A stretch of 64,000 nt of DNA, from NCBI GenBank assembly GCA_963719495.1, contig CAVRCI010000013.1, positions 608,001 to 672,000 on the forward strand, read 5' to 3'. The notes under the pieces were generated by a model that was given only the letters and a program-made list of their open reading frames with translations, searched no databases and was not told where the DNA came from. Made by a program: the position numbers and the translations under genes. The first letter of the stretch is position 1. Each line of letters begins with the position of its first letter. Positions 26,111-55,085 of this stretch are shown piece by piece. Source of the stretch: an uncultured Verrucomicrobiae bacterium (GTDB lineage: Bacteria; Verrucomicrobiota; Verrucomicrobiia; Chthoniobacterales; JAATET01).

Positions 26111-26118
26111 CCTCCACC

Positions 26119-38600: not shown

Positions 38601-38604
38601 TCCC

Positions 38605-39540
38605 ATGCACCCCCCTGACGCCGTGACCAATCCGACACCCGCCACAACCGGAGCGACTTCGAAAACGGTCGCCTTTCCGGAATGGGCCCCCTTTGCGATC
38701 ATCGCGTTGATCTGGCTCCCGGCGTTGATGCGGTTCAGCGTCGAGTGGTCGATCAACCCTCAATACTATTACGGTTGGTCAGTTCCGTTGCTTTCGGCGT
38801 ATTTAATTTATGATCGTTGGCTGGCCCGCCCGAACCCGGTCCCGCCCGCTCGGATCCTGGTGCCGGCGATCCTAATCATCCTGTGCGCCCTGCCGCAGTT
38901 ACCCTTGCGGTTAGTCGGCGAGGCCAATACCGATTGGCGGTTGGTGTCGTGGATCATGGGATTGAACGCCTTGGCGATCAGCTTTGCGATCCTCTACATC
39001 CAGGGCGGTTGGCGCTGGCTCGGCTTCTTCGTTCTCCCCATCCTTTTCTTACTGACGGCCGTCCCGTGGCCCTCCGGTGCCGAAAAGCTGCTCGTTCAGG
39101 GCCTGATGCGCGTGAACGCCGAAATCGCCGCCAACCTCGTTGGTTTCGTCGGCATCCCGGCGGAGGCCCGCGGCAACGTGATCGAGGTGCCGACGGGGGT
39201 GTTGGGCGTCAACGAAGCGTGCAGTGGGATTCGGTCCCTGCAGTCGACTCTCATGGCGGCGATCTTCCTCGGTATCCTCTACCGCCGCTCGGTTCCGGGA
39301 TTGATCGGACTCGTTGTCGTCGGCTCGCTCATCGCGTTCGTCTGCAACGTTATTCGGACGACGTTCCTGACGTATCAGGGTGCGGTCAACGGGATCACCG
39401 CCGTCGACGAGTGGCACGACACCGCTGGCTTCGTCATTCTTGGCGTCGTCCTCGTGTGTCTCTGGGGGATGAGTCAATGGCTCGAGCGCTCGGAAAGGAA
39501 AGGATCTGAACAAAAGAGTGCTGAGGAAGCAAAGGTCTGA
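38605..39540 (+). CDS. Exosortase/archaeosortase family protein
   Basis: PQYYYGW, VNEACSGIRSL (Cys), NVIRT (Arg), WHD (His). Confidence 0.9.
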   Translation: MHPPDAVTNPTPATTGATSKTVAFPEWAPFAIIALIWLPALMRFSVEWSINPQYYYGWSVPLLSAYLIYDRWLARPNPVPPARILVPAILIILCALPQLPLRLVGEANTDWRLVSWIMGLNALAISFAILYIQGGWRWLGFFVLPILFLLTAVPWPSGAEKLLVQGLMRVNAEIAANLVGFVGIPAEARGNVIEVPTGVLGVNEACSGIRSLQSTLMAAIFLGILYRRSVPGLIGLVVVGSLIAFVCNVIRTTFLTYQGAVNGITAVDEWHDTAGFVILGVVLVCLWGMSQWLERSERKGSEQKSAEEAKV

Positions 39541-39653
39541 AGATGCATTGAAACCCGCCCGGTGTGGCTGGAGTCTGGCTCGACCTGAATAGGATTCGTG
39601 TCATCCGGCGGACCGAAAGGGGGTGGCTTTCAAACCAATCGAAGCTAAATTAC

Positions 39654-39983
39654 ATGACGATGCTGCAACAACGCGACGAGCAGCGAAGGCAAACGCGCCT
39701 CGAGCTTTTCGACGCGACCCGGCGAACACTTTTTGCCGAGCTTCGTGCCCGGCTCCCCCGCGGGACGGTGGTATGGATCTTTGGCTCGTTGGCTCGACGA
39801 GGAGTCTTCAACGCCGCTTCCGACGTCGACATCGCTCTGGAATGTGAGCCAGCGGGGTCGAGTTGTTTTCGCCTGAGTTCCGAGTTGGACGAAGCTTTTG
39901 GCCGCCCCGTCGATGTGGTGCTGCTGAATGAAAGTCGGCTGGCCGCTCAAATCCAAAGCGCCGGAGAAAAATGGACGCTATAG
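39654..39983 (+). CDS. Minimal nucleotidyltransferase (MNT) antitoxin
   Basis: FGSLAR...SDVDIA...VDVV. Confidence 0.85.
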   Translation: MTMLQQRDEQRRQTRLELFDATRRTLFAELRARLPRGTVVWIFGSLARRGVFNAASDVDIALECEPAGSSCFRLSSELDEAFGRPVDVVLLNESRLAAQIQSAGEKWTL

Positions 39984-40453
39984 GCTTGGCCACGCTGCAT
40001 CGGGAAATGCAGGAGGATGTGCGCGTGATGCACGACGCGTTCGATCTTGCGACGGAGCGTTTTTCCCACGCTGGAGCGATGGGCTTGGAGTCGACGGCGC
40101 ATCATTTGTGCCGGTTCTACAACGCGTGCGAACAAATGGCTTTGCGAGTGGCGAAGGCATTCGAAAATCACATCGATGACGACCGAGGATGGCACACCGC
40201 TCTCCTCACGCGGATGAGCCTGGAGATCGGAGGAATTCGCCCGGCCCTGATCCCGGTGGATCTCAAACCCGATCTCCAAGAGTTGAAAGGGTTTCGACAC
40301 GCCTTCGTTCATGCTTACGAGTTGCGGTTGGACGAAGAAAAGCTGCGATTGCTGATCCAATACGCCGGCCGGGTGAATGCGCGGTTGGATGAAATGATCA
40401 GAGTCTTCGCGGATCGTGCTGTCGAAGACGCAGATCCGGATTCAACATCGTAG
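39971..40453 (+). CDS. HEPN ribonuclease toxin (HepT-like)
   Basis: Overlaps the MNT; WH motif; FRHAFVHAY (Rx4H). Confidence 0.85.
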   Translation: MDAIGLATLHREMQEDVRVMHDAFDLATERFSHAGAMGLESTAHHLCRFYNACEQMALRVAKAFENHIDDDRGWHTALLTRMSLEIGGIRPALIPVDLKPDLQELKGFRHAFVHAYELRLDEEKLRLLIQYAGRVNARLDEMIRVFADRAVEDADPDSTS

Positions 40454-40472
40454 AAGTCGAGTGAACGAGTAG

Positions 40473-40646
40473 CTAATAATAGTAACGAGCAACCAACAAC
40501 TCACATCCGCGAAGCTCGCGAAGCTCCTCCCCGGCGCGGATGAAATCATGAATTCCGCGATGTTCCTTGGGACCAACCCGGGCTTGACGCGGGAGATGCT
40601 CGAATCCGAGATCGCGACGATTCGGAGCTTCGTGAGGAGCTTCTGA
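40473..40646 (+). pseudogene. 3' fragment resembling the RfbH/DdhC (DegT-family) C-terminus
   Basis: LPGADEIMNSAMFLGTNPGLTREMLESEIATIRSF*; no upstream start for the full gene. Confidence 0.55.
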
Positions 40647-40876
40647 TTCTCGCGCTGAGGCTGATACAAATGCGGATGAGGGGACCACAATTAGGTTAGC
40701 TAAAAATGCATTCCGAATAACGGAAACGAATGGAAAGAATCCTCTCTGCGTCTCAGCGCCTCTGCGGGAAAATCATTCGGAAATAAGCCCTCGCCGCTCG
40801 CCTCGGCCACCACAGCTGCGCTCCTTTCCACCTGATCGTCCATTGAAATGCGGCAAGACTCCGACTATCTTCATCC

Positions 40877-41071
40877 ATGACTTTTAAGGCAGTCATTCAC
40901 CCCTCTGAAGATGGCGGCTTTTGGGCGGAGGTTCCCGCTCTTCCAGGATGTGTTTCCCAAGGGGAATCCATGGAGGAACTTCGCTTTAACATCCAGGAAG
41001 CTGTCGAGCTATGGCTTGAAGCGGGATCACCCGAAGAGACGGAGGGTCAGATCCTGGAACTTGCGATTTGA
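40877..41071 (+). CDS. HicB antitoxin
   Basis: EDGGFWAEVPALPGCVSQGES. Confidence 0.88.
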   Translation: MTFKAVIHPSEDGGFWAEVPALPGCVSQGESMEELRFNIQEAVELWLEAGSPEETEGQILELAI

Positions 41072-41276
41072 AGCAGGTTACGGGCAGGCAGCTTGCCAGA
41101 TCTGTCGAGAAACGCGGATGGATCCTCTCGCGAGTCAAAAGCAGTCACCACGTTTTCATAAAAGCTGGACGACCGGAACGAATCGTTATCCCGATCCACG
41201 GCAATCGGCCCTTAAGCTTGGCCTTCTCAAATCCCTAATGAAGATCGCCGCTCTCCAAGAGAGCGGCATCAAATGA
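41068..41276 (+). pseudogene. HicA toxin, frameshifted
   Basis: KRGWILSRVKSSHHVF...IPIHGNRP, then a frameshift near 41210 into LKLGLLKSLMK. Confidence 0.75.
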
Positions 41277-41293
41277 CCGTAACGAGCCGCTAG

Positions 41294-42890
41294 CAGCCTG
41301 TCGGACTTACAAGAGCGACAAAATCCAAGAAACCTGTCAGACAGGGAGGATGGCAGTGAGATACGTCAACGTGGATCATGAGACCCCGCTACTTTTACCG
41401 CCGGACCTACGGGACTGGGTTCCGGCAGGGCACATGGTTCATTTCGTGATGGACGCGGTAGGGGCGTTGAATCTTGGGGCGGCAAAGAGGAACGAAAGGG
41501 GGACGGGATCGGCGCAGTATCCGCCGTCGATGATGCTGGGGTTGCTGATTTACAGCTACGCGACGGGCACATTTGGGAGTCGGCGCATTGAAACGCTCAC
41601 GCACGAGAATGTGGCCGTGCGCTACCTGTGTGCCGGACACCATCCTGACCACGACTCGATCTGCAAATTCCGCCGAGAGAACGCGGAACTGCTCAGCAGT
41701 TGCTTTCATCAGGTTCTTGAACTGGCGGCAGGATCAGGAGTGTTGAAGGTGGGAGATTTGACCGTCTCGCTGGACGGCACCAAGCTTCTGGCCAACGCGA
41801 GTCGCCACAGCGCGATGAGTCACGGACGGATCGAAGAGCAGATGACGCTGGCCAGCGAGCAAATACAGGAGCTGTTGGCCAAGGCCGAGAATGCCGACAG
41901 CACCCCGCTGGCCGACGGGCTGGAGATCCCGCAGGAAATCAAACGTCGCGAGGATCGACTGGCCAAGCTTGTACAAGCCAAGGCCGCTCTGGAAGCTCGG
42001 GTCAAAGTCCGCTTCGAGCAGGAAAGCACGGCCCACGCCGAAAAGCTCGCCACCCGCGCACAAAGCGAGCAGAGCACCGGTCGCAAAGCACGTGGCAAGG
42101 CACCTGAACCGCCCACCGAAGGCCCCCGTCCCAAGGACCAATATAACTTCACCGATCCCGAGAGCCGGATTATGAAAGACAAAAGCAGCTTCGCGCAGTG
42201 CTACAACGCGCAGGCCGCCGTGGATGTCGACACCATGCTCATCGTCGGAGCCCATCTCACCGACGCGCCCAACGACAAGCAACAACTCCAACCCGGAGTG
42301 GAGTCCGTGAGTCCGGTCGTCGGCAGCGTCAGCCAAGTGCTCGTCGACAGTGGCTACTACAGCCAGGAAGCGGTTGCGACCGTGGAAGCCCGAGACGGGA
42401 ACCCGAAAGTTTACGCCGCGCAAAAGCGCCAGCCCCACGGGCGCACAATTGCTGATCTGGAACTCCGAGCCGACCCGCCCGCACCGCCACCCGATGCTCC
42501 GCCTACCGAAATCATGGCCCACCGACTCACCACCGCGACTGGGCGCGAACTTTACGCCCTGCGCAAACAAACCGTCGAACCCGCCTTCGGCATTATCAAA
42601 GAAGCCATGGGATTCCGACGCCTGCTCCTGCGTGGGAAGGAAAAAGCCGCCTTGGAATGGTCATTAGTCACCACCGCCTACAACCTCAAACGCCTTTTCG
42701 GACTCGGGATGCAGATCGCAAGGGCATAAGGAGCCCGCCATCTCGCTTTTCACACCCGCCGGCAGAGGCCGTCAACGACACCGACAGCTTCGTTCCCGTC
42801 ATTGGACTTTCCGGTCCGCTCGCCAACGGCCAACCCAAACCTACCCCAAAAATCCCACGTCAACCCGCTGGCTCCAAGTCCGACAGGCTG
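41294..42890 (+). mobile_element. IS1182-family IS; TIR CAGCCTGTCGGACTT; flanked by CTAG duplication
   Basis: Perfect inverted ends; CTAG at 41290-41293 and 42891-42894. Confidence 0.88.
41350..42729 (+). CDS. IS1182 family transposase
   Basis: PDHDSICKFR, LDGTK, TDPESR, DSGY, RKQTVEPAFGIIK. Confidence 0.92.
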   Translation: MAVRYVNVDHETPLLLPPDLRDWVPAGHMVHFVMDAVGALNLGAAKRNERGTGSAQYPPSMMLGLLIYSYATGTFGSRRIETLTHENVAVRYLCAGHHPDHDSICKFRRENAELLSSCFHQVLELAAGSGVLKVGDLTVSLDGTKLLANASRHSAMSHGRIEEQMTLASEQIQELLAKAENADSTPLADGLEIPQEIKRREDRLAKLVQAKAALEARVKVRFEQESTAHAEKLATRAQSEQSTGRKARGKAPEPPTEGPRPKDQYNFTDPESRIMKDKSSFAQCYNAQAAVDVDTMLIVGAHLTDAPNDKQQLQPGVESVSPVVGSVSQVLVDSGYYSQEAVATVEARDGNPKVYAAQKRQPHGRTIADLELRADPPAPPPDAPPTEIMAHRLTTATGRELYALRKQTVEPAFGIIKEAMGFRRLLLRGKEKAALEWSLVTTAYNLKRLFGLGMQIARA

Positions 42891-43060
42891 CTAGCAACCC
42901 GCCACGAGCGACTCTCAACCATTTCCTCCGTGCCGGTAGCAGCACGGGAACTCGCGCAAGCCGAGCTTACGACACAGCCTACAAGGCAACGCGCAGAGGG
43001 TGAAGCTACACTGTTTTCCTTCCGCGTTGATTTTTCCGCGAAAACCTCGATCCTCAGGAG

Positions 43061-43360
43061 ATGAATGAGATGGGCAGTCTCCCTGCCGAGCGCCTGCAAA
43101 AGGCAACCGTCGATCCGCGGGTTCGGTTTGGTGTCAAAGGCCTCTCGGTCTTCGGCTCCCGGCGACGTGGTGGAGCGCAGGTGGCAAGCGATCTCGACCT
43201 GCTCGTCGAGTTTGATCGACCGATCGGTCTGCTTGCCTTCAATCAATTGGAATCCGAGTTGAGAGAACTCACGGGATGCCGGGTCGACCTGGTCATGCGC
43301 TCAGCCCTCAAACCCAGCCTCGGAGCCCGGATTCTCGCGGAGGCGATTCCGGTTCCGTGA
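43061..43360 (+). CDS. MNT antitoxin (paralog of 47567)
   Basis: FGSRRRG...SDLDLLVEFD...VDLV. Confidence 0.82.
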   Translation: MNEMGSLPAERLQKATVDPRVRFGVKGLSVFGSRRRGGAQVASDLDLLVEFDRPIGLLAFNQLESELRELTGCRVDLVMRSALKPSLGARILAEAIPVP

Positions 43361-43412
43361 CGGAGAGGGATCATCGAGACGACTTAGAAGATATTTTTGC
43401 GCACGCCTCGAA
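43357..43412 (+). pseudogene. Truncated HEPN (DUF86) N-terminus
   Basis: VTERDHRDDLEDIFAHA matches the start of the 47863 HEPN; cut off where convergent vapC ends. Confidence 0.65.
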
Positions 43413-43415
43413 CCC

Positions 43416-43844
43416 TCAGTCGAGCGGATTGACCCAATTCAGCCCGGGGAATCGTCCAAAATCGGTGTCTGTCGAGTTCAGAGTGTATCCGGTCTCGATT
43501 GCCAGAGCAGCCAAGTGAGCATCGGTCGTGAGATTGCCCCCAAGCTCGATCGCGATGAGTAGCGAACTCAGAGTTCGGAAATGGTTGGTTGCCGGGTTGA
43601 GGACAAACACGTGAGGTTGGTCCAGCCACTCCTGAACACGTTCGGCTGCAGCGGTCGGAGAAAGTGGATTCGCGAAAATTCGGGGCTGGGTCGTGATTCG
43701 GACGAATCCCAGGATGACAACCCACGGCAGCGCGATTCCTTCGGTCCCATTCAGGCAGCCTTCCCACCATAACCGAGCCGGATCGTGGGATGGGGCGCTC
43801 ACGTTATGTGCGTAAACGAGAAGATTGATATCCGGCAGAATCAT
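43416..43844 (-). CDS. VapC PIN-domain toxin
   Basis: MILPDINLLVYAH, TDAHLAALA, STDTDF. Confidence 0.9.
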   Translation of the reverse strand: MILPDINLLVYAHNVSAPSHDPARLWWEGCLNGTEGIALPWVVILGFVRITTQPRIFANPLSPTAAAERVQEWLDQPHVFVLNPATNHFRTLSSLLIAIELGGNLTTDAHLAALAIETGYTLNSTDTDFGRFPGLNWVNPLD

Positions 43845-44104
43845 TTCCCCAATGCCTTTACGGAATACTCAGCGGACTCGAGTTCATCGTTGAGTTGATT
43901 CAGACGATTCCAATCGAGTCCTGGACTGACACCAAAGTCATGCGGTCGGACAACCACCTTCCGCCTTGGCTCGCTTGAAAAGTCGGCGTTCAAACCCCGC
44001 CGAATCGCGGAGTTGACGATTTTCTTGAACGACGTCCCAGTGACTGCCGATTGTTTCTGCAGAATCACCGCCAAATCATCTTCCAACGTAAGGGTCGTTC
44101 GCAT
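43841..44104 (-). CDS. VapB-type antitoxin
   Basis: MRTTLTLEDD RHH-like start; coupled to vapC. Confidence 0.85.
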   Translation of the reverse strand: MRTTLTLEDDLAVILQKQSAVTGTSFKKIVNSAIRRGLNADFSSEPRRKVVVRPHDFGVSPGLDWNRLNQLNDELESAEYSVKALGK

Positions 44105-44282
44105 GAAAGCATCATGGCATCATCCAAAGTGATGTCAATGCATCAAGTGATGTTTGAAGGGTTGAAGTGCTGAAAGATTGAGTGGTCAAGAGCGGAGGGT
44201 TTGCCTCCGGAGAAAATTCATTGTGACTGGTGACGGGTGACCAATAACCAATAACCAATAACTGTATCCCAGCCCTCCGCGC

Positions 44283-44450
44283 CTCAGCACCTCTGCGGGA
44301 TAAAAAGCATCAGCATTCAATACAGGAACTCGCGCAACCGAAGGCTCGGGAGAGCCGAAGATAGACGAAAAGCCCGAAGGGTGACCGAGCCGGGTTGCGA
44401 GGGAATCAAAGGCGCGGAGGCGCAAAGGTTGATACAAATGCGGATGAGAA
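44283..44450 (+). repeat. Modular inter-cassette repeat; related copies near 45702, 47384, 48245, 49191, partial 40660-40770
   Basis: Shared CTCAGCGCCTCTGCGGGATAAAAAG...CAGG(A/G)ACTCGCGC backbone. Confidence 0.9.
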
Positions 44451-44639
44451 AAAGCTGAAAGAAAAGAACAGGGGAAATCAAAGGAAGCTAAACTTTAAAA
44501 AGCGTCTCAGCGCGATCAAGCCCAGTCAGCTAAAATTTTCTCCCTACTAAGTAACTCCCACGGCCGCAACGGAACTCTTGGGACGATGGACGGCAAATCC
44601 CGGGCACGCTGAGTCACCTATTTCAATTTTCCACCAACC

Positions 44640-45158
44640 ATGCGTGACGAAACTGATCTCCGGAAGCTCGAGGCATTTCTCCGGGAGCTCGGGAATGCGG
44701 TGACGAGCCCGGGCCGGATCTATCTCACGGGTGGAGGAACCGCCGTGTTGCACGGTTGGCGAGGGATGACGATCGACGTTGCTTTGAAGGCCGACCCCGA
44801 GCCGAACGGACTCTTTGAGGCGATCGCGAGGCTGAAAGACAGTCTGAGTTTGAACGTCGAACTCGCTTCGCCGGAAGATTTCATTCCCCGGCTTCCGGGA
44901 TGGGAAGACCGAAGTCTTTTCATCGCGCGTCACAGGAAAATCGATTTGTTCCATTACGATCTGTATTCGCAAGCGCTGTCCAAGCTTGAGCGCTCCCACG
45001 CCCGGGACGAGCTGGACGTGAGGGCGATGGTTGATCGCGGCCTCGTTGACAAATCGCGTCTCTGGGAGTTGTTTGAAGTGATCGAGTCGGGTCTCCTGCG
45101 CTATCCTGCCGTTGACGGTGCCGGTTTCCGAACGCGCGTCGCTGATTTTTGCCGATGA
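44640..45158 (+). CDS. DUF6036-like nucleotidyltransferase
   Basis: YLTGGGTAVLHGWR..TIDV, SKLERSHARD. Confidence 0.75.
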   Translation: MRDETDLRKLEAFLRELGNAVTSPGRIYLTGGGTAVLHGWRGMTIDVALKADPEPNGLFEAIARLKDSLSLNVELASPEDFIPRLPGWEDRSLFIARHRKIDLFHYDLYSQALSKLERSHARDELDVRAMVDRGLVDKSRLWELFEVIESGLLRYPAVDGAGFRTRVADFCR

Positions 45159-45442
45159 TGATTCTGTCCGAAGATCTTGAGAGACTTCCTGGGTGGGATT
45201 TGATCCGCCCGGGCCTCGCCGACGCGAAGGCAGAGCGAGTCTCGCCGGAAGCCTGTCTGGTTTGGATCGCTGCTCCCCGGCTGCGCGCTGCCGGTTTATT
45301 GCCTGAGTCCAAGGTTCCGATCATCGATCCGGAGCGGACCCTTTATGGATTACTGCGCGCCCAAGGTGGGGATGCCTATCCGGCCTACCAAAGTCTGCTC
45401 CGTCGTCTATCGAAGTTCGTGCGCGCACTCGGGTCAGTGTGA
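45155..45442 (+). CDS. Small partner protein of the DUF6036 gene
   Basis: ATGA overlap; LPGWDLIRPGLAD...YQSLLRRLSKF. Confidence 0.7.
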   Translation: MMILSEDLERLPGWDLIRPGLADAKAERVSPEACLVWIAAPRLRAAGLLPESKVPIIDPERTLYGLLRAQGGDAYPAYQSLLRRLSKFVRALGSV

Positions 45443-46044
45443 GTCTCGCGCGAGCCAAGCTCGCGAGACCGCCTGCAAGGCAACGTGCAAAGACGAGGAA
45501 AAAACCGCAGATCTAGGTTACTCTGGAAGGTTTTCCTCCCACCTAGCAGCAAACTACCCGACTATCTAACATCTTTTCCGCTCACCAGTCGCGGCCCGTA
45601 ACCCCAATTCGTCTCCTCCCATGAAAAAGACGGTCATCATTGCCTCCCGCTCGCCGCTCCCAAGTTCTCGTCTCTCGACTCACCAAAAGCATGAAATGTT
45701 CCCTCAGCGCCTCTGCGGGATAAAAAGCATCAGCATCAATACAGGAACTCGCGCAACCGAAGGCTCGGGAGAGCCGAAGATAGACGAAAAGCCCGAAGGG
45801 TGACCGAGCCGGGTTGCGAGGGAATCAAAGGCGCAGAGACGCAGAGAATGAAGATGCTGATGGGTTTCAAGCGGTACCAGCCCGAAGAGCTTCAGATCAG
45901 CTGTTTTCAACGCCGAGTGGCTGGTGGCTGGTGACGAGAGCATCGGCGCGGTGGGACCGCGCGAGACAGACTGCGTCGGCTCTGCGACGCAGCCCGCAGG
46001 GCGACATGAGCGGGAGCGAAGGAGTCAATCGAGGGTCGAAGGCA

Positions 46045-46431
46045 ATGAATGAAATTCGATTTCGATTTGAGCGGCTGGACGCCTGGCAAATGGCCCGTCA
46101 GTTGAACCGTTCGATCTACCGACTGACCAAGACCTTTCCCAAAGACGAAATGTTTGCGCTCACATCTCAGCTGCGTCGGGCGTCCGTCTCGGTTAGTTCA
46201 AATATCGCGGAGGGATCAGGCCGCAACTCTGACAAAGACTTCGCGCACTTTCTCGAAATCGCTTACGGGTCGCTCATGGAAACGGTTTCCCAGTGTTTTC
46301 TCGCTCTCGATGAAGGATATTTAACGCAGAAAGACTTCGATTCGCTCGCGGGTGATGCAGACAAACTCGCGGGGAAGATCGTCGCGCTCTCCAAGTCACT
46401 CGGTCGTTCAGCCCGAATTCACCAGAAATAA
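46045..46431 (+). CDS. Four helix bundle protein (IVS/Avd-like)
   Basis: FRFERLDAWQ, LTSQLRRASVSVSSNIAEG, IAYGSLMET. Confidence 0.92.
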   Translation: MNEIRFRFERLDAWQMARQLNRSIYRLTKTFPKDEMFALTSQLRRASVSVSSNIAEGSGRNSDKDFAHFLEIAYGSLMETVSQCFLALDEGYLTQKDFDSLAGDADKLAGKIVALSKSLGRSARIHQK

Positions 46432-46640
46432 GCCCTCGACTCTCGACGCTCGACTCCTCCGACCTCAGAAATAAGCCCTCGACTCTCGACGCTCGTCCCT
46501 CGACTCCTGCGACCTCAGAAATAAGCCCTCGACGCTCGACGCTCGTCCCTCGACTCCTCCGACCTCAGAAATAAGCCCTCGACTCTCGACGCTCGTCCCT
46601 CGACTCCTGCGACCTCAGAAATAAGCCCTCGATGCTCGTC
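46423..46640. repeat. Tandem repeat, units of 43/50/50/50 bp plus a partial, starting in the last codons of the four-helix gene
   Basis: CAGAAATAAGCCCTCGA at 46423, 46466, 46516, 46566, 46616. Confidence 0.95.
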
Positions 46641-46691
46641 ATTTGCCCCCTGGCATTTCCATTCCCGGCCTCGCGTGCTAGATTCTCCCAG

Positions 46692-47009
46692 ATGAACCAT
46701 CTTCTCGAGAGCAAGCAGGTGGAGATCGTCGATGCGTGCGAGCAATTCGACGTTGAGAGACTTGCAGCATTCGGATCGGTCGTGAGGGACGATTTCCGAG
46801 CCGGTGCGAGTGATGTTGACTTTCTCGTTCGATTTCGAGCGCCCGGTGAACCGGGTTATTCAGACCGATATTTGGATTTTGCCGAGACGTTGGAGCGACA
46901 CTTGGGACATTCGGTCGATCTGTTGACCGAGAGATCCCTCCGGAACCCTTACCTCCGGCAAAGGATCACCGAGGAAGCCCAGGTCGTCTATGAATCGCAA
47001 AGTTCTTAA
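46692..47009 (+). CDS. MNT antitoxin
   Basis: FGSVVR...SDVDFLV...VDLLT...NPY. Confidence 0.88.
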   Translation: MNHLLESKQVEIVDACEQFDVERLAAFGSVVRDDFRAGASDVDFLVRFRAPGEPGYSDRYLDFAETLERHLGHSVDLLTERSLRNPYLRQRITEEAQVVYESQSS

Positions 47010-47330
47010 GCGGCTGGAAGATGCCCGGGTGGCGTGCCTAAAAATCCAGAACTTCACCAATTGTCAGGATTTCGCAGCTTTCCAGAGCAGTGATTTAGTC
47101 CGGGCAGCCGTAGAGCGGCAACTAGAGATTATTGGGGAAGCGCTCGGCAAAGCCCTAGCTGACGCGCCCCAACTCGAGGAATCCATCCCAGAGATTCACC
47201 GGGCATCGGAATCCGTAATCGCCTGATTCACGGATACGACAGCGTAGATGATGAAATCGTCTGGGATGTGGTCAGGCTCAAACTAATCCCGTTTCTTGAC
47301 CGACTTGGACTCCTTCTGGATGGCAATTGA
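46990..47330 (+). pseudogene. HEPN (DUF86) toxin, frameshifted
   Basis: AVERQLEIIGEA; frameshift near 47204 moves RNRLIHGYDSVD out of frame. Confidence 0.8.
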
Positions 47331-47566
47331 ACGAATGCCGACCGTTACCCGCTCGCCCGTAACTCATCGCCCTTCCCTCCGCGCCTCAGCGCCTCTGCGG
47401 GATAAAAGTATCAGTATCAATACAGGGACTCGCGCAGCTGCAACGGATGTGCAGCAACGGCCAGGCCAGCAACCCTAAAGCCGTAGAGGAAAGTTGGCTT
47501 CTAGTTTTCCCGGAGTTTCCCACCTTCCCCGTTGATCTTTCCAGAGAGAACCACGAAGTTTCGGTC

Positions 47567-47866
47567 ATGAGAGAAAACGGAGGGTTCCCTGTCGAGCGAC
47601 TGCGCTTGGCAGCCACCGGACTGCGGGATCAATATGGAATCAAGCAGCTTTCGGTATTTGGTTCCCGTCGACGTGGCGAAGGGCACGAGGAGAGCGATCT
47701 CGATCTGCTCGTGGAGTTCGACCGCCCGATCGGTCTGCTTGCCTTCAATCAGTTGGAATTCGAGCTGAGTGAACTCACGGGATGCCGGGTCGACCTGGTC
47801 ATGCGTTCGGCTCTCAAACCGAGCTTGGGAGCGAGGATTCTCGCGGACGCATTATCAATCTCGTGA
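47567..47866 (+). CDS. MNT antitoxin
   Basis: FGSRRRG..SDLDLLVEFD. Confidence 0.85.
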   Translation: MRENGGFPVERLRLAATGLRDQYGIKQLSVFGSRRRGEGHEESDLDLLVEFDRPIGLLAFNQLEFELSELTGCRVDLVMRSALKPSLGARILADALSIS

Positions 47867-48210
47867 GGGGCAGGGTCCACCGAGACTCCTTGGAAGACAT
47901 TGTTGCGCACGCGAATCGAGCCGGAGACTTCATTGTCGGAATGGATTTCACCGCCTTCCGAGTTGACGAGAAAACCAACTTTGCGGTCGTTCGCTGCCTT
48001 GAAATCATCGGCGAAGCCTCGAAAAGAATCCCGGAGCAGATCCGGGCGCGCTATCCCGCTATCCCGTGGATAGCGATGGCCGGGATGCGCGATAAATCGA
48101 CTCACGATTATTTTGGTGTCGATTTGGAAGTCGTCTGGCACACGGTTGCCGTTGAGTTGCCTCCGTTGATCGTGGCAATGGAATCTGTCCTCGCCGACGA
48201 AATCTCCTGA
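47863..48210 (+). CDS. HEPN (DUF86) toxin
   Basis: GTGA overlap; LEIIGEA, GMRDKSTHDYFGVD. Confidence 0.85.
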   Translation: MRGRVHRDSLEDIVAHANRAGDFIVGMDFTAFRVDEKTNFAVVRCLEIIGEASKRIPEQIRARYPAIPWIAMAGMRDKSTHDYFGVDLEVVWHTVAVELPPLIVAMESVLADEIS

Positions 48211-48462
48211 CTCGTATTCAGTAACCCGTAACACACGGCTACTCCCTCAGCGGTTGCTGGCCTGGCCGTTGCTGCGCATCCGTTGCAGCTGCGGGATAAA
48301 AAGCATCGGTATCCATCCAGGAACTCGCGCGAGCCGAGCTTGCGAGACAGTCTGCAAGGCAACGCGCACAGGGTGCAGATGGTGATCGGTTTCCCTCGAG
48401 GCGAGCTGTTTCCACGGCTCGATACGCTCGACTTCCGAGGTGAATTGGCTTAGAAGTAACTT

Positions 48463-48783
48463 ATGCATCCGGCAATTCAGCAGATATTGCAGAAGCGATC
48501 GGGATCGGTTGCGAGCCTTTGTTCTAAGCTTTCGGTGGAAAGGCTGGGGCTCTTCGGATCGGCCTGCGGAGGGACATTCGACCCGAACGAAAGCGACTTG
48601 GATTTCCTGGTTGATTTTAAGAATGCCGATGGCCCGGGAATCGCGGACCGCTATCTCTCGCTGGTCGAAGGCCTGGAGAGCATTTTCGACCGAGAGGCGG
48701 ATGTGATCACGCGCCGATCAATCAGGAACCCCGTCTTTCGCCGGGTGACTGAGGAGACCGAGACGCTCCTGTATGAAGCGTGA
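48463..48783 (+). CDS. MNT antitoxin
   Basis: FGSACGG..SDLDFLV. Confidence 0.88.
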   Translation: MHPAIQQILQKRSGSVASLCSKLSVERLGLFGSACGGTFDPNESDLDFLVDFKNADGPGIADRYLSLVEGLESIFDREADVITRRSIRNPVFRRVTEETETLLYEA

Positions 48784-49117
48784 AACTGAAAAGCTCTTGA
48801 TTGATATCCAGATCGCTCTGAGAGATTTGGAAGATTTCACGGCAGGAGTCGATTTAGCGGGATATCGAGCCGACGCCATGCGAAGAGCTGCCGTTGAGCG
48901 GAAATTCGAGATTGTCGGAGAGGCTTGCAATGGCTTGAAAGCCGAGGATTCTGGGACATTCGACAGGATTTCTTACGCGGTCCAGATCATTGGATTCCGC
49001 AACCGTTTGATCCACGGCTACGATTCGGTCGACGATGCGATCGTCTGGGACGTCATTCAAACCAGACTTCCTCTCCTCAAGGCGGAGGTCGGCGACTTGT
49101 TGGCGAGCGACGGGTGA
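48773..49117 (+). CDS. HEPN (DUF86) toxin
   Basis: AVERKFEIVGEA, FRNRLIHGYD. Confidence 0.9.
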   Translation: MKRETEKLLIDIQIALRDLEDFTAGVDLAGYRADAMRRAAVERKFEIVGEACNGLKAEDSGTFDRISYAVQIIGFRNRLIHGYDSVDDAIVWDVIQTRLPLLKAEVGDLLASDG

Positions 49118-49646
49118 GTAGCTAGTGGCTGGTGGCGCGTTGGATTTACCTCTCCAGCCGTAACCCACTACCCATAACTCACCGCCATTCCCTCAGCGCC
49201 TCCGCGGGATAAAAATATCGATACAGGGACTCGCGCAACCGAAGGCTCCGGAGAGCCGATGATAGACGAAAAGCCCGAAGGGTGACCGAGCCGGGTTGCG
49301 AGGGAATCAAAGACGCAGCGACGCAGAGAATGATACAAATGCGGATAAAGAAGCTGAATCTTAAAAAGAAACCCCTCCGCGTCTCTGCGGTTGCTGGCCT
49401 GGCCGTTGCTGCGCCTCCGCGCCTCTGCGGGAGAAATTCCGAATCATGCAACTGATAGGGTGAGGCTCGCGCCCAATCAGCACGGTCGCTTCCTCAATAA
49501 GAGCGAGTCGTTCGTCAACCAGAAGCGGCAACCGACGACCTCTGATTTACGATTTCCGAACCCCGACGAAGATCCCCAGGAAATCGATCCCGATCTCCGC
49601 TTACTTCGCGTTGCCAACAGGGAGCGTCCATCGTAGTTCTTTGAAT

Positions 49647-49946
49647 ATGCAGACCGTTGATTTTCAGGATCAATTCGCCGGTCCATGTCGGCGGCATCTG
49701 GTGAAACGATTGCAGCTCTTCGGATCAGTTTCGCGGGGACAGGGGACACCGGGGAGCGATTTGGACCTCCTGGTCCAGTTTCACGAAATGTCCGCCGCGG
49801 ATTACTCGAGTCATTATTTTGCTCTACTCCATGAGATCGAGGACAAATTGGACCGGCGCATTGACTTGCTGACACCCGCCGGGCTCAAGCGACGGTTGCT
49901 CAAGGATAATATCGAGAAAGAGGCGATTCTTTTGTATGAAGATTGA
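49647..49946 (+). CDS. MNT antitoxin
   Basis: FGSVSRG..SDLDLLV..IDLLT. Confidence 0.85.
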   Translation: MQTVDFQDQFAGPCRRHLVKRLQLFGSVSRGQGTPGSDLDLLVQFHEMSAADYSSHYFALLHEIEDKLDRRIDLLTPAGLKRRLLKDNIEKEAILLYED

Positions 49947-50283
49947 AGTTCGCGAGGATCTCGAAGCGATCATCGAGCACGGGAGTCAAATCGAGGAGTT
50001 CGTCTCAGAACTGACCTTTGAGACGTAGGCGAATGATCCCAAGACTCGATTGGCGGTTGAACGAGCGTTTGAAATCATTGGGGAAGCCCTCAATCGAATT
50101 GCCAAATTGGAGCCTGAGGTTCTGGAACGCGTTACGGACCATCGGAAAATTATCTCATTTCGAAATATTCTCGCGCATTGCTATGACAGCATAGAAGACA
50201 AGATCGTCTGGGGAATCGTCGAGGACGCGCTGCCGCAGCTCATGGCCCAGGTCCGCTGCCTCCTTCCGAAAGGACCAGCCTGA
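49936..50283 (+). pseudogene. HEPN (DUF86) toxin with internal TAG
   Basis: In-frame TAG at 50026; later AVERAFEIIGEA, FRNILAH. Confidence 0.8.
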
Positions 50284-50291
50284 CAGCCACC

Positions 50292-50340
50292 GACATCCGA
50301 CATCTGACATCTGACATCTGACATCTGACATCTGACATCC
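50292..50340. repeat. (TCTGACA)n heptamer tract
   Basis: Read directly between two cassettes. Confidence 0.9.
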
Positions 50341-50359
50341 AGCCACTGACCACCGACCA

Positions 50360-50752
50360 ATGAAAACCGCGATCGACCGATCATCTCGGATCCGGGAGAG
50401 AGTCCTCCGCGACCCGCGTTATCCGGTGAGTCGCATTGCGGATCGGTTGCTGCCCTATCTGCAGATTTTGGATGAGCGGTTTTCGCCCGTGCGAGTGGTT
50501 CTTTTTGGCTCCTATGCCTACGGCGAACCCGACGAACACAGCGACATCGATTTGCTCGTTGTTCTGGAAACGATCGTCGGGTCGATCGCTGTGAAAAAAA
50601 GCATTCTCCGCGCTTGGCGCGATTTGAGATGGAGCGGCCCGTCGCTTCCCATCGAACTCATCATCGTATCGAGGGATCGGCACGCGGAACGACTGCGCGA
50701 CAATGGAGCCTTCTATCGTACGATCAACGAGCGGGGACTCGCCATCCTGTGA
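50360..50752 (+). CDS. MNT antitoxin
   Basis: LFGSYAYGEPDEHSDIDLLVV. Confidence 0.88.
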   Translation: MKTAIDRSSRIRERVLRDPRYPVSRIADRLLPYLQILDERFSPVRVVLFGSYAYGEPDEHSDIDLLVVLETIVGSIAVKKSILRAWRDLRWSGPSLPIELIIVSRDRHAERLRDNGAFYRTINERGLAIL

Positions 50753-51138
50753 AAACCGATGAATCCCGTTAGGAAGACTGGTCCTTTCTAGCCAGTGAGC
50801 GCCTGAAGGCCGCAGACGCACTCTGACAGTCCGTCGGGAAAAGCTTGAGCGGCGGCGAATTGCTCCAGGAATCGCTCGAGCGTTTTTTAAAGGGCTATCT
50901 GATCGCGCGGGGTTGGGAACTGCGCAAAATTCACAACCTTTCGACCCTACTCGATCACGCCGTCGAATTTGACCAGAGGTTTAAAGAATTCGCCGAACTT
51001 TGTGAGAGCTTAACGGCCCAGTTTTGGGCGCAGCACTATCCGGGAGATGACTTGGAAGAAGTTGGAGTCGACTACGACGAACTCCGTCAACTCGCCAGCG
51101 GGCTTATTGACCTGATCTCGGTATCGACAAAGTCTTGA
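50749..51138 (+). pseudogene. HEPN domain gene with two internal stops
   Basis: TAG at 50770, TGA at 50824; QESLERFLKGYL, KIHNL, HYPG. Confidence 0.75.
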
Positions 51139-51456
51139 TCAACCGGCAAGCGTCTTTCGGATTCCAATCCACCGAACCACCCGCGACTCGTAAACGGAAA
51201 GTTGAAAGCAGAAAAAAATCGTGACGGCGCAGCCATGGACCAAAGAGATTTCGGCGGTCTGCACCACAGCCCGGCCCCGCCTTCGGTCCGCCGCGGCGCG
51301 CTACGAATCGAGATCGGATGCCTAACCTCATTCCCGGTGATTCGGCTCCACCTTCGACTGTTTCACTCCTTTGGCCCTCGACGCCGCAACGTGCCACGTC
51401 TGATGAACGCAGCCACGACCTCAAAACCAGCGAGCCGTTTCATTGATTGATTCCGT

Positions 51457-51493
51457 CCCAAATGTGGCGATATGAATCACCGACCCCTTTCCC
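51457..51493 (+). repeat. Junction motif AATGTG(T/G)C(A/G)ATATGAA..ACCGACCCCTTT; copies at 54517-54554 and 55054-55085
   Basis: Three near-identical copies in the same orientation. Confidence 0.85.
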
Positions 51494-51616
51494 GATGAAG
51501 GCTACCTAAACCAAGCTTAGTTTGACGCATTGACAATCAGCGCGGATAAGTTGGCAGGAAAGATCGCCGCGCTGTCGAAGTCTCTCGGCCGTTCAGCCCG
51601 AATTCACCAGAAATAA
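51494..51616 (+). pseudogene. 3' fragment of a four helix bundle gene (paralog of 46045)
   Basis: DEGYLNQA*FDALTISADKLAGKIAALSKSLGRSARIHQK*, followed by the same CAGAAATAAGCCCTCG repeat. Confidence 0.8.
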
Positions 51617-51901
51617 GCCCTCGACTCTCGACGCTCGTCACTCGTCATTGCCCTCGCCCCTCGCCCCTCGCCCCTCGACGCTCGACGCTCGTCACTCGAC
51701 TCGCCCGACCTCAGAAATAAGCCCTCGCCGTTGACTCCCGCTCGCCCGAGCGTGTCGCCCTACGGGCGGCGTAGCAGAGCCGACGCCGTCTACCCCGAGC
51801 CGCCCCCATCGGTCCGGTGTTCGTCCCTCGTCCCTCGACGCCCCCAACCTCAGAAATATGCCCTCGACGCTCGTCCCTCGCCCCTCGACTCCCCTATAAG
51901 C

Positions 51902-52289
51902 ATGAAAAAGTCACTTATCGTTCTTTTTTCCTTCGTCATCGCCTGGTTCGTCGTCTCCGAGGCGGCTACCGAGGCTTGGTATCGTTGGCACGAGATGCGG
52001 GCGGCGAAATCGCCCGAGTGGACTGTCACCTGGCCCGATGAACCCGAATCCGACTGGAAGGTGGAGGATTTCACGGAATTCCCGACCTCCGATCAGGTGC
52101 AGGAAGTTCTGCGCTACGACGAAATGCGCGGTGCCCGTTGGGTTGATCCCGCGTCCCGGGGCGCGTGGAGCGTCAACTTCATCGAATGGGAGCCGGATAA
52201 GAATCTCAACGGCATCAATGCCGTTCACAACCCCACGATCTGCCTGCCGGGCGCGGGAATGCAGTTGGTGAAGGCCCTGGGAGAACGGA
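51902..52289 (+). pseudogene. Exosortase-associated EpsI-like gene, 5' duplicate, truncated
   Basis: EAATEAWYRWHE...HNPTICLP; similarity to the 53581 copy ends at LGER. Confidence 0.7.
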
Positions 52290-52434
52290 ATCAAAGCGCG
52301 ACTCAAACGGTGAGGTTCGGAGGCGAGTCCTTTCTCAACTTTCAACATTCCAAATTTCAACCTTTCGCCCCACACAAACCCCATTTCCCCGACACCGAGA
52401 ATTTGTTGCGAGAATTCCGTGTGCGCATTACGGT

Positions 52435-52689
52435 ATGACCATGAGACTTGAGTTGGAACTCCCCGAATCGGCGGTTTCTGCCCTGCGGTGCCCGCCGACC
52501 GAGATGGGGGCGCGTCTCAGGCTTATGGCGGCAGCCAAACTCTACGAAATTGGTCATCTCAGTCAGGAGCGCGCCGCCGAGCTGGCAGGGCAGTCCAGGC
52601 AATCGTTTTTAGCCAATCTCACGCAGCTAAGAGTCAGCCCCTTCCAAGGTATCGAAGACGACCTTGTGCTAGTAAAAGATCTTCTGTGA
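52435..52689 (+). CDS. UPF0175 family antitoxin-like protein
   Basis: AAKLYEIGHLSQERAAELAG. Confidence 0.85.
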   Translation: MTMRLELELPESAVSALRCPPTEMGARLRLMAAAKLYEIGHLSQERAAELAGQSRQSFLANLTQLRVSPFQGIEDDLVLVKDLL

Positions 52690-53174
52690 AGCTGGTTCTC
52701 GACGCCTCGCCCATTATCGTGCTGGCGAAATCGGGATTGATTGATCGATTGTTATCAATGGCAGAGGGGATCCTGATTCCGCGAGCCGTCGCCAACGAAA
52801 TTGCCGCTGCCGCCGATCCTCTCGATGCGGCGAGGCTCTGGATTGCGAGTTACGGAAGTCCCCACGGATCGCCGAAAAATGGCCCGATACCCGCCTTGAT
52901 TGCTGGCTGGGATTTGGGCGCTGGCGAGTCGGCCGTTCTACAGTCTGCCAATTCAAATCCAGGTTCCACGGCCGTGCTCGACGACTTGGCTGCGAGACGA
53001 TGCGCGGCGACCATCGGTCTGCCGGTTATCGGGACGATCGGCCTGATTCTGCTCTCAAAGAAGCGGGGAATCCTGGCCGACATCGAAGGAGCGCTGGCAG
53101 CCGTGGTTGACGCGGGGCTCTATATCGCTCCTCGCCATCTTGTCGATGTCATCGAGGCTGCCAAAGAATTCTAA
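52686..53174 (+). CDS. DUF3368 PIN-domain protein
   Basis: VLDASPII, DLGAGES, LDDLAAR, GTIGLIL. Confidence 0.85.
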   Translation: MKLVLDASPIIVLAKSGLIDRLLSMAEGILIPRAVANEIAAAADPLDAARLWIASYGSPHGSPKNGPIPALIAGWDLGAGESAVLQSANSNPGSTAVLDDLAARRCAATIGLPVIGTIGLILLSKKRGILADIEGALAAVVDAGLYIAPRHLVDVIEAAKEF

Positions 53175-53244
53175 TTTTCTCAAATACTCGCTACTTTTTC
53201 CCGTTTCCAGCCACGCGCGTAGCACTCATACCCGCAGAATAATT

Positions 53245-53397
53245 ATGGCGTTTGCCGAGCAGTTTGAGGATTTGAAGATCTGGCAAGAGGCCCGGGCTCC
53301 TTTGGCGGCGATTTATCGCTGTTTTGCCAGATGTAAGGATTATTCCTTTCGCAATCAGGTTCAACGCGCGGCGTTATCCGTCATGAACAACATCGCG
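53245..53397 (+). pseudogene. 5' fragment of a four helix bundle gene
   Basis: FEDLKIWQEAR...NQVQRAALSVMNNIA, then interrupted. Confidence 0.78.
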
Positions 53398-53580
53398 CTC
53401 CGCCCCGTAGGTGTATGACAAGAAGCAGAAATTTAGCTAGGGAGCTACGCGTCCCAGGCGTCTCGCCTTTTCGGCTACGTCGCAGAGCCGCCGTAGTCTG
53501 GCCTGCGGCATCCCTGCCGCCGGTGCTCTGATCTCCGACCGCTGACATCTGACCTCAGATCTCTTAACTCCCTCCCTCCC

Positions 53581-54126
53581 ATGAAAAAATCCCTCCTCAT
53601 CTTGCTAGCCGCCGTCCTCGGTTGGTTCGTCGTGTCCGAGGCGGCTACCGAGGCTTGGTATCGTTGGCACGAGATGCGGGCCGAGAAGTCGCCCGAATGG
53701 TCGGTCACCTGGCCGGACGAACCCGAGTCCGACTGGATGGTGGAGGATTTCACGGAGTTTCCGACCTCCGATCAGGTGCAGGAAGTTCTGCGCTACGACG
53801 AAATGCGCGGTGCGCGCTGGGTTGATCCCGCGTCCCGGGTCGCGTGGAACGTCAACTTCATTGAATGGGAGCCGGATAAGGATCTCAACGGCATCAATGC
53901 CGTTCACAATCCGACGATTTGTCTGCCGAGTGCTGGAATGCAGTTAGTGAAGACACTGGGAGAACGGACCATCGAGGTCGGCGGCCAGTCGATCTCCTTC
54001 CAATGCTTCATTTTCGAGACCCAGGGCCGCCAACTCTACGTCTTCTCCGCCGCCAATCAGGAGTTGAAATTGAAACCGCGGACATCGCCGACTGAATCGG
54101 GCGGCTCAATCGACTGGATACCGTGA
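53581..54126 (+). CDS. Exosortase-associated EpsI-like protein (C-terminus possibly truncated)
   Basis: N-terminal TM, TEAWYRWHE, LRYD, HNPTICLPSAG. Confidence 0.65.
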   Translation: MKKSLLILLAAVLGWFVVSEAATEAWYRWHEMRAEKSPEWSVTWPDEPESDWMVEDFTEFPTSDQVQEVLRYDEMRGARWVDPASRVAWNVNFIEWEPDKDLNGINAVHNPTICLPSAGMQLVKTLGERTIEVGGQSISFQCFIFETQGRQLYVFSAANQELKLKPRTSPTESGGSIDWIP

Positions 54127-54554
54127 ATTCCGCCAACCGCCAGGGACCGCGTCAGGTGATGCACATTTACCTGATGGGCCGGCGCAGCTTTGACGCCGCG
54201 CTGGCTGAGTTGCAGCGCGGGTTCGAGAAAATAGTGGAAACGCAGCCCGCCGGGAAGAACGCGTAGGGAACTGGCGAGAGCACGTCGGGGGCGGCAGGGA
54301 GCCGAAGATCGCGGGAATCGATCGAGATAGATTGGAGCAAAGTGACTGCCGCGAAGCGGTGACGGGTTGGGCAAGCCCGGAATCAACGGGAGGCGACAGA
54401 CGCAAAGAAAGCAAAGTTCGAATGCTCCAGTAGCGGCGACATCCTGCCGCCGAAGTCACCCCGAAAACATGGTAGGGCGGTCCGCTCCGCACCCGCCGAC
54501 TTTCCCGCGTCTCACTCCCAAATGTGTCAATATGAACGACCGACCCCTTTTCCC

Positions 54555-54990
54555 GGTAAGATCGAGCGCCTTGGACTCGTTTCGACATTGGCTCCTTCAT
54601 TCACGATTCCAGCGGCTGTCTCGTCTGAAATTTTAGCAGGCCCGGATGGTGATCCCGCTAAGGTTTGGCTGGAAAGCGAAGGCACCTCGATCCACGTAAC
54701 GGGACCGGTCCAGTCCCAATGGAAATCCTCGCTTGGGACCTCGCGTGCCGGTGAAAGCACCGTTCTCGCGCTCGGTCTGTCGACGAAACGATTCGACGTG
54801 CGTTCTTGATGATCTTGCCGCCCGCCTCTGTGCCGAGGTTTACCAAGTCTCCACCTTGGCACGCTCAGGATTCTCCTCAAAGCGAAACAGACGGGTCTCA
54901 TCCCTTACGTTCGACCGGAGATTGACCGCTTGCTCACCGTGGATCGCAATCTCGCCCCGGGGGTCGTCCACAAGGCACTCTCACTGTCCG
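54555..54990 (+). pseudogene. 5'-truncated, frameshifted DUF3368 PIN gene
   Basis: GKIERLGLV...IPAAVSSEI, AGESTVLA, VLDDLAARLCA spread over shifting frames. Confidence 0.65.
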
Positions 54991-55085
54991 GCGAGTCATC
55001 CTGACCCCAGACGACCGAGAATCGCGTTCCCCTCGTCACCCGCCACCAACCGCAATGTGTCAATATGAATGACCGACCCCTTTCC

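Follow-up and report, generated by a model that had tools for sequence, protein, structure and literature searches.

An array of toxin-antitoxin (TA) modules lies between an exosortase gene (xrt) and an epsI-like gene in a glycan operon of the 64,000-nt window (the whole stretch of DNA analysed, in whose coordinates positions are given), and on balance we read it as a cassette pool anchored at this locus, whose members are passed on chiefly through homologous recombination, the repeats between modules serving as portable anchors. New here are the shuffling of TA cargo between species and a crossover within xrt.

The roughly 11 TA modules listed in the preliminary description are real, though five toxins are broken as assembled, namely four of the seven HEPN genes and HicA. 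Pfam supports all seven MNT genes of the proposed MNT-HEPN modules, each with an open frame, but only six HEPN genes, the seventh being a stub of about 18 codons (43357-43410); the MNT-then-HEPN overlapping gene pair is present, with three of seven pairs intact as assembled. HicB-HicA, the minus-strand PIN gene with its upstream partner, the DUF6036 gene with its partner and UPF0175-DUF3368 are likewise Pfam-supported. The three four-helix-bundle genes or fragments proved to be one complete gene, one 5' piece (Pfam) and one 3' piece recognised by DNA identity (about 51494-51616; 88% over 96 nt against the complete gene), while the second DUF3368 relic has no Pfam or NCBIfam match but can be aligned with the intact gene (38%, E 2e-5). 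Genome-wide, 10 of 12 MNT-family matches fall within 57 kb of this locus, and the 24 PIN matches are scattered, two of them here. Host genes are partially duplicated too (epsI in the array, WecG and epimerase genes downstream), and duplicates in the array are 76-89% identical, which is not strain-level. The genes are as follows, with percentages giving identity and G001 to G005 denoting congeners of this genome (G000):

38593..39540, + strand: exosortase gene xrt, left anchor; mosaic, G004-like to G003-like between 39477 and 39495
39654..40453, + strand: MNT-HEPN module 1, intact; 98% at the corresponding position in G003, 89% in a different setting in G005
40877..41277, + strand: HicB-HicA, HicA frameshifted as assembled; 90% in G001
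43061..43410, + strand: MNT gene and HEPN stub, fused to the end of VapC; same fusion in G004
43416..44104, - strand: VapBC-type module (PIN toxin and unnamed upstream partner); 95-97% in G004
44640..45442, + strand: DUF6036 nucleotidyltransferase and unnamed partner; 97% in G004, twice in G005, neighbours differing each time
46045..46640, + strand: complete four-helix-bundle gene (TIGR02436), then 50-nt tandem repeats built of heptamers
46632..47335, + strand: MNT-HEPN, HEPN frameshifted as assembled
47567..48210, + strand: MNT-HEPN, intact (Pfam)
48463..49117, + strand: MNT-HEPN, intact; 95% in G004, both breakpoints within arms
49647..50283, + strand: MNT-HEPN, HEPN with an internal stop; 92-96% in G001, G004 and twice in G005
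50360..51138, + strand: MNT-HEPN, HEPN with two internal stops, heptamer tract 5' of the module; 92% in G001
51902..52295, + strand: epsI-like gene, 5' partial duplicate; 88% to the second copy
52435..53174, + strand: UPF0175-DUF3368 module (Pfam)
53245..53418, + strand: four-helix-bundle gene, 5' piece (Pfam)
53581..54270, + strand: epsI-like gene, right anchor; weak DUF3485 match; full length against G003, frameshifted as assembled

Comparison with the congeners, all of them different species, showed that content and order of the xrt-epsI interval vary, as the preliminary description would have it: the interval is empty in G002 and carries other modules in another order in G001, G003, G004 and G005. 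Shared modules are 89-98% identical between species against 81-87% for gyrBA, and therefore modules move between species; synonymous divergence of shared genes is 0.04-0.19 in 22 of 23 comparisons (0.30 in the other), whereas gmd close by gives 0.46-0.67. It is individual modules that switch neighbours and order, rather than blocks as a whole; multi-module junctions are common to different genomes, and close module copies in relatives occur only at this locus. Within its coding sequence xrt changes donor, and the new tract extends through module 1 up to an arm of the repeats described below. Breakpoints inside repeats had been expected, and this held as an enrichment but not as a rule: among 78 block ends, which come from pairwise comparisons and are non-independent, 18 lie at arms in both genomes (shifted control, mean 6.4 and maximum 13 in 200 draws) and 10 at short tandem tracts only, whereas 41 lie at neither and one crossover falls inside xrt. 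Ends are thus heterogeneous, with no single fixed crossover position. The enrichment at arms could also reflect enzyme-directed cutting, a point against recombination.

The non-coding spacers do recur, as initially noted, but belong to several unrelated repeat families (at least four, mixed in the array) rather than one. The main spacer combines the inverted octamer arm pair that belongs to a GxxExxY nuclease element with a conserved linker, the core, and the array arms match the flanks of GxxExxY genes themselves. The 16.1-kb array holds five cores, three right arms and three RAYT-type ends, whereas the remaining 47.9 kb of the window has none of these; left arms number seven inside it and three outside. 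Its right third (50300-55085) contains no arm and no core. Junctions in the array read:

40650..40770, + strand: degenerate gene-less element with right-arm start, linker and left arm
44275..44515, + strand: left arm, core linker, right arm with nested hairpin insert, gene-less linker, degenerate left arm
45703..45850, + strand: left arm, core, right arm with nested hairpin insert
47377..47475, + strand: left arm, core, variant insert
48246..48378, + strand: left arm with insert, core, right-arm start with insert
49192..49472, + strand: left arm, core, right arm, gene-less linker, left arm

The inverted doublet folds to a hairpin, with z of about -4.8 to -5.6 for units of G003 and weaker values (-2.1 to +0.3) for copies in the window. 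Across the six loci of the genus core orientation is uniform (79 forward, 0 reverse), and 19 of 30 cargo units have both arms. Closure in a left arm, seen in 27 of the 30, is tidier than random exchange predicts, which counts against recombination. Loose core matches in this genome are not dispersed, 9 of 12, including all with arms, lying at C13:652-698 kb; two REP-like families have 82 and 61 copies across the genome. The exact core, a pattern that would miss diverged linkers, occurred in 0 of 395 genomes beyond the genus (401-genome sample of the order) and was not found in metagenome contigs, a set that may leave out near-own records. G016 is counted only in tallies including the order-wide core scan and the module-copy search, and no claim depends on it. 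No Rfam family reached its gathering score over 39000-56000.

The cognate enzyme of the arms is a PD-(D/E)XK-fold protein of 127 residues; in fold it is matched best by SSO0001, a Cas4 protein (E 5e-4), and the catalytic-type residues D67, E77 and K79 are invariant in 21 sequences. Across many phyla these arms bound the elements of this nuclease clade, both being present at 40 of 80 loci under a strict pattern. A matching gene is part of the array in G003 and in G004, the genomes richest in cores (42 and 19), and a search for a close cognate found none in G000, G001 or G002 (best 36-53%; 36% in this genome). The proposal of a dedicated enzyme supplied in trans finds no support: two relatives encode the arm-owning nuclease in cis, and this genome lacks a close copy of it. 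Targeting of glycan operons stands within the genus, where the core is confined to this glycan locus in five of six genomes, but not for the element beyond it, which enters many operon types, with glycan genes at 14 of 79 loci and TA neighbours at 2 of 79; these counts rest on crude ORF picking, many of the 145 ORFs having no Pfam match, and leave out L063, one of the 80 loci, which is a same-genus array. A separate GxxExxY element lies between gyrB and gyrA in three of six genomes and is absent from others. In the literature, with subscription papers mostly outside the search, GxxExxY occurs in three papers, and the two among the matches listed mention it once each under unrelated titles.

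These observations suggest a sequence of events. It would begin with a GxxExxY gene between inverted octamer arms, an arrangement seen in this glycan operon of the genus; the element with its linker of about 20-27 nt appears to have been tandemly amplified, mostly in the gene-less form that the loci display, and arms now enclose TA modules. Congener DNA would then recombine in, anchored by operon genes, by arms and linkers or by shorter microhomologies, and unequal pairing of direct repeats would add, drop, duplicate and reorder modules, leaving partial duplicates of host genes. In line with established TA biology, toxins would decay and antitoxins persist, and modules would accumulate because losing an intact one is penalised. 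Recombination accounts for shuffling, not for the first entry of a new module between arms; ComEC was found in three of the five genomes searched, which we count against the recombination reading. The final layer in this genome would be the RAYT-element ends, which overlay the right third of the array, and an IS1182-family element, which is an opportunistic insertion (the two DDE transposases reported for the window were confirmed):

41294..42890, + strand: IS1182-family element, which has inverted ends of its own and a target duplication of 4 bases; further copies lie elsewhere in the genome
51461..51616, + strand: RAYT-element end, then 3' piece of the four-helix-bundle gene
54521..54810, + strand: RAYT-element end, then 5'-truncated DUF3368 relic
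55054..55370, + strand: RAYT-element end, then 5'-truncated metallo-beta-lactamase-fold gene

The locus would represent a second route to a cassette array that is both ordered and shuffled, and arrays of this kind escape attC-based searches; a classical integron with about 200 cassettes operates in the same genome. It also suggests how TA modules come to gather in surface-polysaccharide loci. The uncharacterised GxxExxY family is here tied to a defined putative DNA substrate and a gene cargo, so that its function can be tested on a protein of 127 residues and a repeat of 150 bases.

It is possible, if unlikely, that the GxxExxY nuclease is instead a dedicated engine that recognises and cuts or processes the arms and mobilises anything between them, TA modules being passengers of non-autonomous copies, in which case this genome's array would be orphaned or served by a nuclease arriving with donor DNA. 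The arms as ends of the clade across phyla, the gene inside the two core-richest arrays, the invariant residues with the Cas4 match, the patchy element between gyrB and gyrA and the 19 units with both arms are all consistent with this, yet G000 and G001 have shuffled arrays without a close cognate gene, the crossover position is not single, close module copies are never found off-locus whereas the nuclease element enters many operon types, and TA neighbours are rare at distant loci. A bolder version, which we put forward rather doubtfully, would be a new cassette system in which a Cas4-like GxxExxY nuclease and host repair capture, excise and reorder genes between hairpin arms, building recombinase-free, integron-like defence or addiction arrays in surface-glycan operons; the nuclease would travel as its own cassette, and nuclease-less arrays, as here, would therefore be parked until a donor returns it. 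If the nuclease does drive capture, this is a new class of gene-shuffling system; if host recombination does everything, the advance is moderate. The variable operon gaps could also merely tolerate insertions, so that small elements (GxxExxY, four-helix-bundle genes with heptamers, RAYT ends, REP-like repeats, IS) and TA modules gather there and are spread by whole-locus replacement, with repeats as bystanders. The mixture of unrelated families, the genome-wide copies of two REP-like families, the 41 ends at neither arm nor tandem tract and the scattered PIN genes fit this picture; we nevertheless think it distinctly unlikely, for neighbours and order change module by module and not by whole block, arms hold an excess of block ends, the core is locus-confined and one-directional, and MNT-family matches cluster around the locus.

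That a RAYT, an HUH tyrosine transposase acting in trans, built the array is very improbable: each of the three ends lies directly 5' of a 5'-truncated gene, and a cognate RAYT-like gene exists at C13:310175 (its scanned domain piece scores under the NF047646 cut-off), but the end adjoins broken genes rather than intact modules, occurs once in the locus of G001 and is absent from those of G002 to G005, three of which have arrays. RAYT relics gave no tblastn match in the six loci. An assembly chimera of mixed strains joined at repeats deserves scarcely any weight; the genome is a draft with 2.8% contamination, and partial duplicates and frameshifts are frequent, yet the same architecture occupies the same site in four independently assembled congeners, duplicates diverge beyond strain level and multi-module junctions are shared between genomes. 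Practically negligible is the chance that the array is an integron cut off from its integrase (CALIN), although the genome has an IntI above the TIGR02249 cut-off (C2:176417), adjoining its own very large array of 210 attC sites on another contig, and TA cassettes are common in such arrays according to the portion of PMC13108822 drawn on. The host attC model exceeded 120 bits at 28 of 28 control sites and gave nothing above 8 bits over 39000-56000, and a generic attC rule, of low sensitivity (6 of 28 in the control locus), found none in the array. The window contains no match to a tyrosine or serine recombinase and no GIY-YIG gene, genome matches being far off or on other contigs. The array is therefore not an integron and the window is recombinase-free, both as originally proposed; of a repeat-directed accretion system, the non-integron nature and the variable order and content stand, but most breakpoints lie off the arms and an enzyme in trans is unsupported.

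Minimal mobile elements of Neisseria carry variable genes between two conserved genes and are exchanged by recombination in the flanking genes. The crossover in xrt is likewise an exchange via a flanking conserved gene, whereas internal repeats here subdivide the interval and single modules are reshuffled and duplicated. The Neisseria NIME arrays (dRS3 inverted repeats around RS elements) offer a precedent for repeat arrays as recombination anchors: in the passages of PMC1797815 used here they are syntenic, lie beside cell-surface genes and vary by genome in unit number and length, recombination ends are enriched in repeats (13 of 19 fragments at tbpB), and both host recombination and a specific recombinase are proposed. 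Our array shares the syntenic inverted-repeat units, their variable number and content and the enriched exchange ends, and is an analogue, not a member; NIME units are non-coding and flank a variable gene, whereas here units enclose the exchanged TA genes, the arms derive from the GxxExxY nuclease element and a single operon contains the whole array. Sedentary chromosomal integrons and CALIN, as portrayed in excerpts of PMC4889954 and PMC13108822, resemble it in short one-directional modules, many of them TA, in variable order and content and in hairpin-forming repeats between modules, but it has no attC, adjacent IntI or fixed crossover, its modules have long private flanks, and host genes are duplicated and recombined too. 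With REPIN/RAYT systems, as far as the section of PMC3116915 consulted extends, it shares inverted hairpin doublets, tandem clusters that repeat flanks, a small cognate enzyme flanked by the same repeats and repeat-in-repeat insertion; here, however, that enzyme has a PD-(D/E)XK fold rather than being an HUH transposase, GxxExxY genes are the ones flanked by the arms, the core is not genome-dispersed, units carry genes and the true RAYT family is an overlay only. Other GxxExxY arm-gene-arm elements (TIGR04256) have the same inverted octamer arms and gene-less copies, but are mostly single or gene-less chains, whereas the present locus holds a TA array.

Between the exosortase gene xrt (ending at 39540) and the epsI-like gene (53581-54270), which anchor the interval in the glycan (EPS) operon, we found 11 toxin-antitoxin (TA) modules, in line with the approximate number claimed in the preliminary description, with the following content:

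TA modules of the array: seven MNT-HEPN, HicBA, a DUF6036 pair, UPF0175-DUF3368 and a VapBC-type pair
Minus strand: the VapBC-type pair
Non-TA content of the array: four-helix-bundle genes (one whole, two partial) and an IS1182 element

As assembled, four of the seven HEPN genes and HicA are broken, and all seven MNT frames are open. The density of the array is unusual for the source genome (G000), since 10 of its 12 MNT-family matches lie inside a 57-kb part of the glycan locus; PIN genes are scattered, with 2 of 24 in that locus. Neither a tyrosine nor a serine recombinase was matched within the 64-kb window, which spans 608001-672000 of contig C13, as also claimed. Elsewhere in the window, another DDE transposase, a DDE_Tnp_1 protein that also has the associated domain (23149-24327), is inserted in sulfation genes and absent in the related species G004, and a four-helix-bundle gene (25345-26111), located between two sulfate adenylyltransferase-type genes and followed by long octamer tandem tracts, is missing from the alignment with G004.

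The variable cassette order and content that had been anticipated were borne out by comparing the xrt-epsI interval across the genus. The exosortase gene is present in five other species (G001-G005); in G002 epsI follows it directly with no modules between, and G001, G003, G004 and G005 carry differing module sets in differing order. Modules common to the window and the relatives show 89-98% identity compared with 81-87% for gyrBA, and the synonymous divergence of their genes is 0.04-0.19 in 22 of 23 comparisons (0.30 in one), compared with 0.46-0.67 for the adjoining gmd, with non-synonymous below synonymous divergence in all 23. Because shared modules are closer than gyrBA and gmd, and close copies are confined to the glycan locus in each relative, recent transfers of single modules have taken place between species, inside a single locus. 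The same pattern recurs 7-33 kb beyond the window end, together with partly duplicated WecG and epimerase genes. In this second stretch of the glycan locus (contig C13, 679000-705000; loci L003 and L004), WecG, epimerase and VanZ-like genes recur as partial copies, each with different TA modules behind it, and cores and modules are common to this stretch and the relatives. Two relatives have open frames with a weak PemK-like match before a DegT sugar aminotransferase, either a fusion or an overlap (L031, 1247-3175, minus strand; L038, 9276-11156, plus strand).

In the cleanest arrays, those of G003 and G004, the repeating order is right arm, cargo, left arm and linker (the core, a conserved short stretch between arms), the arms being runs of one octamer and of its reverse complement. 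Hairpin folding of the arms reaches a z of about -5 in G003 and is weaker in the window copies (z -2.1 to +0.3). Successive cores bound 66 units, of which 36 lack a gene (<260 nt) and 30 are longer; the left arm closes 27 of these 30, and both arms occur in 19. One cargo in both arrays is a GxxExxY gene, and since both arms flank its relatives in 40 of 80 loci from many phyla (strict pattern), the arms are the ends of a GxxExxY element. In the protein, a D, an E and a K residue are invariant, and Cas4 and lambda-type exonucleases are the best matches to its model. G000 contains no close copy of the array's gene (best 36%), and its four GxxExxY genes have arms that differ from the array's. A GxxExxY element with different arms (L043; contig C14, 136015-136353) occupies the gyrB-gyrA gap in G000, G001 and G002 and is absent from it in G003 and G004; in G005 the gap has a shorter unaligned stretch. 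Exact linker matches, always in a single orientation, were found in five of the six genomes of the genus and in 0 of 395 other genomes sampled from the order, and the linker appears specific to genus and locus. The proposed targeting of glycan operons holds to this extent within the genus, but outside it only 14 of 79 loci of the GxxExxY element, several being kin, show a neighbouring glycan-pathway gene, and two of the 79 show a TA neighbour. In distant genomes, gene-less chains of the same arms stand in tandem beside GxxExxY genes (L080, L142, L126, L072), and type I restriction-modification genes are neighbours in L142 and L073.

The array in the window is a worn form of this arm-linker array: its five cores span 44316-49233, and degenerate arms reach as far back as 40650. 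Seven of the modules lie in units delimited by arms; two others abut an arm on a single side, and the remaining two abut none. In the right third, besides heptamer tracts, another repeat occurs three times, in every case immediately ahead of a gene truncated at its 5' end; it is the end of a RAYT-like element, the gene of which is located at C13:310175. As this end is missing from the fetched loci of four of the five relatives, the copies are a later overlay, and construction of the array by a RAYT is very improbable. Two REP-like families (window 38381-38428 and 51730-51801) have 82 and 61 copies genome-wide, one copy breaking up a HEPN gene at about 475-560 of L004, and G000 has 12 Y1 transposase matches with several distinct flanking repeats.

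Breakpoints were taken from 39 blocks that are shared between genomes, 400-2500 nt long and with identity of 90% or more, an end within 15 nt being counted as at an arm or core and control ends being shifted outward in 200 draws. Of the 78 ends, which are not independent, 18 lay at an arm or core in both genomes versus a control mean of 6.4 (maximum 13), and ends at an arm or core in either genome were not enriched (27 versus 39.9). Ten ends coincided only with short tandem tracts and 41 with neither kind of feature, and inspection of the block ends revealed no fixed crossover base. The exosortase gene itself is mosaic: up to 39477 it has 93-99% identity to G004, then from 39495 on, and continuing into module 1, 96-99% to G003; the G003-like block ends at an arm near 40661. 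This donor switch is a crossover that lies within a host gene and not in a repeat. Breakpoints inside the repeats, as predicted, account for only part of the ends.

Homologous recombination with congener DNA fits best, and we lean towards it. Operon genes and direct repeats would serve as anchors, unequal pairing would add, drop and reorder modules, and the TA modules would be retained through addiction, which is established to keep such modules in place. This model leaves the first capture of a module between arms without explanation, and ComEC was found in only three of five genomes. Its main rival, a GxxExxY nuclease as the engine of the array, is unlikely: the richest arrays carry the gene, and the gyrB-gyrA gap holds another GxxExxY element in some species of the genus and lacks it in others, yet arrays lacking the gene of this putative nuclease are shuffled as well. 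A passive insertion sink is less probable still, and misassembly as the source of the array is barely credible.

That the array is not an integron, as initially claimed, was upheld against the host's own attC sites, which form one family (205 on C2 and five on C7) alongside an IntI on C2:

Contig C2, 27420-177349: sedentary integron of very large size next to intI, with 205 attC sites (10 of them in an inverted block) spread over ~150 kb
Contig C7, 38179-40952: five detached attC sites

A covariance model built from these sites recovered 28 of 28 control sites at >120 bits (16 of them in the training set) and, with filters off, nothing >8 bits in the array; a generic attC rule of low sensitivity (6 of 28 control sites) found no site there either, making an orphan integron array a negligible prospect. 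A second integron-integrase-like gene (C1, 371896-372837) scores just below the family cut-off (249 versus 265 bits), and within L005 (C2, 160001-180000) long tandem repeats (a few hundred bases) lie immediately downstream of intI (L005, 17540-19100).

In outcome the TA array resembles integron arrays, and in its likely mechanism Neisseria NIME arrays or minimal mobile elements, without belonging to any of these; for NIME arrays, PMC1797815 makes a parallel proposal of recombination anchored in repeats. The literature searched, outside of which fell most subscription papers and all supplements, describes neither GxxExxY arms nor TA arrays of this kind. A new enzyme-driven system is doubtful; we regard the array as a new form of repeat-assisted cassette exchange, so far in one genus.
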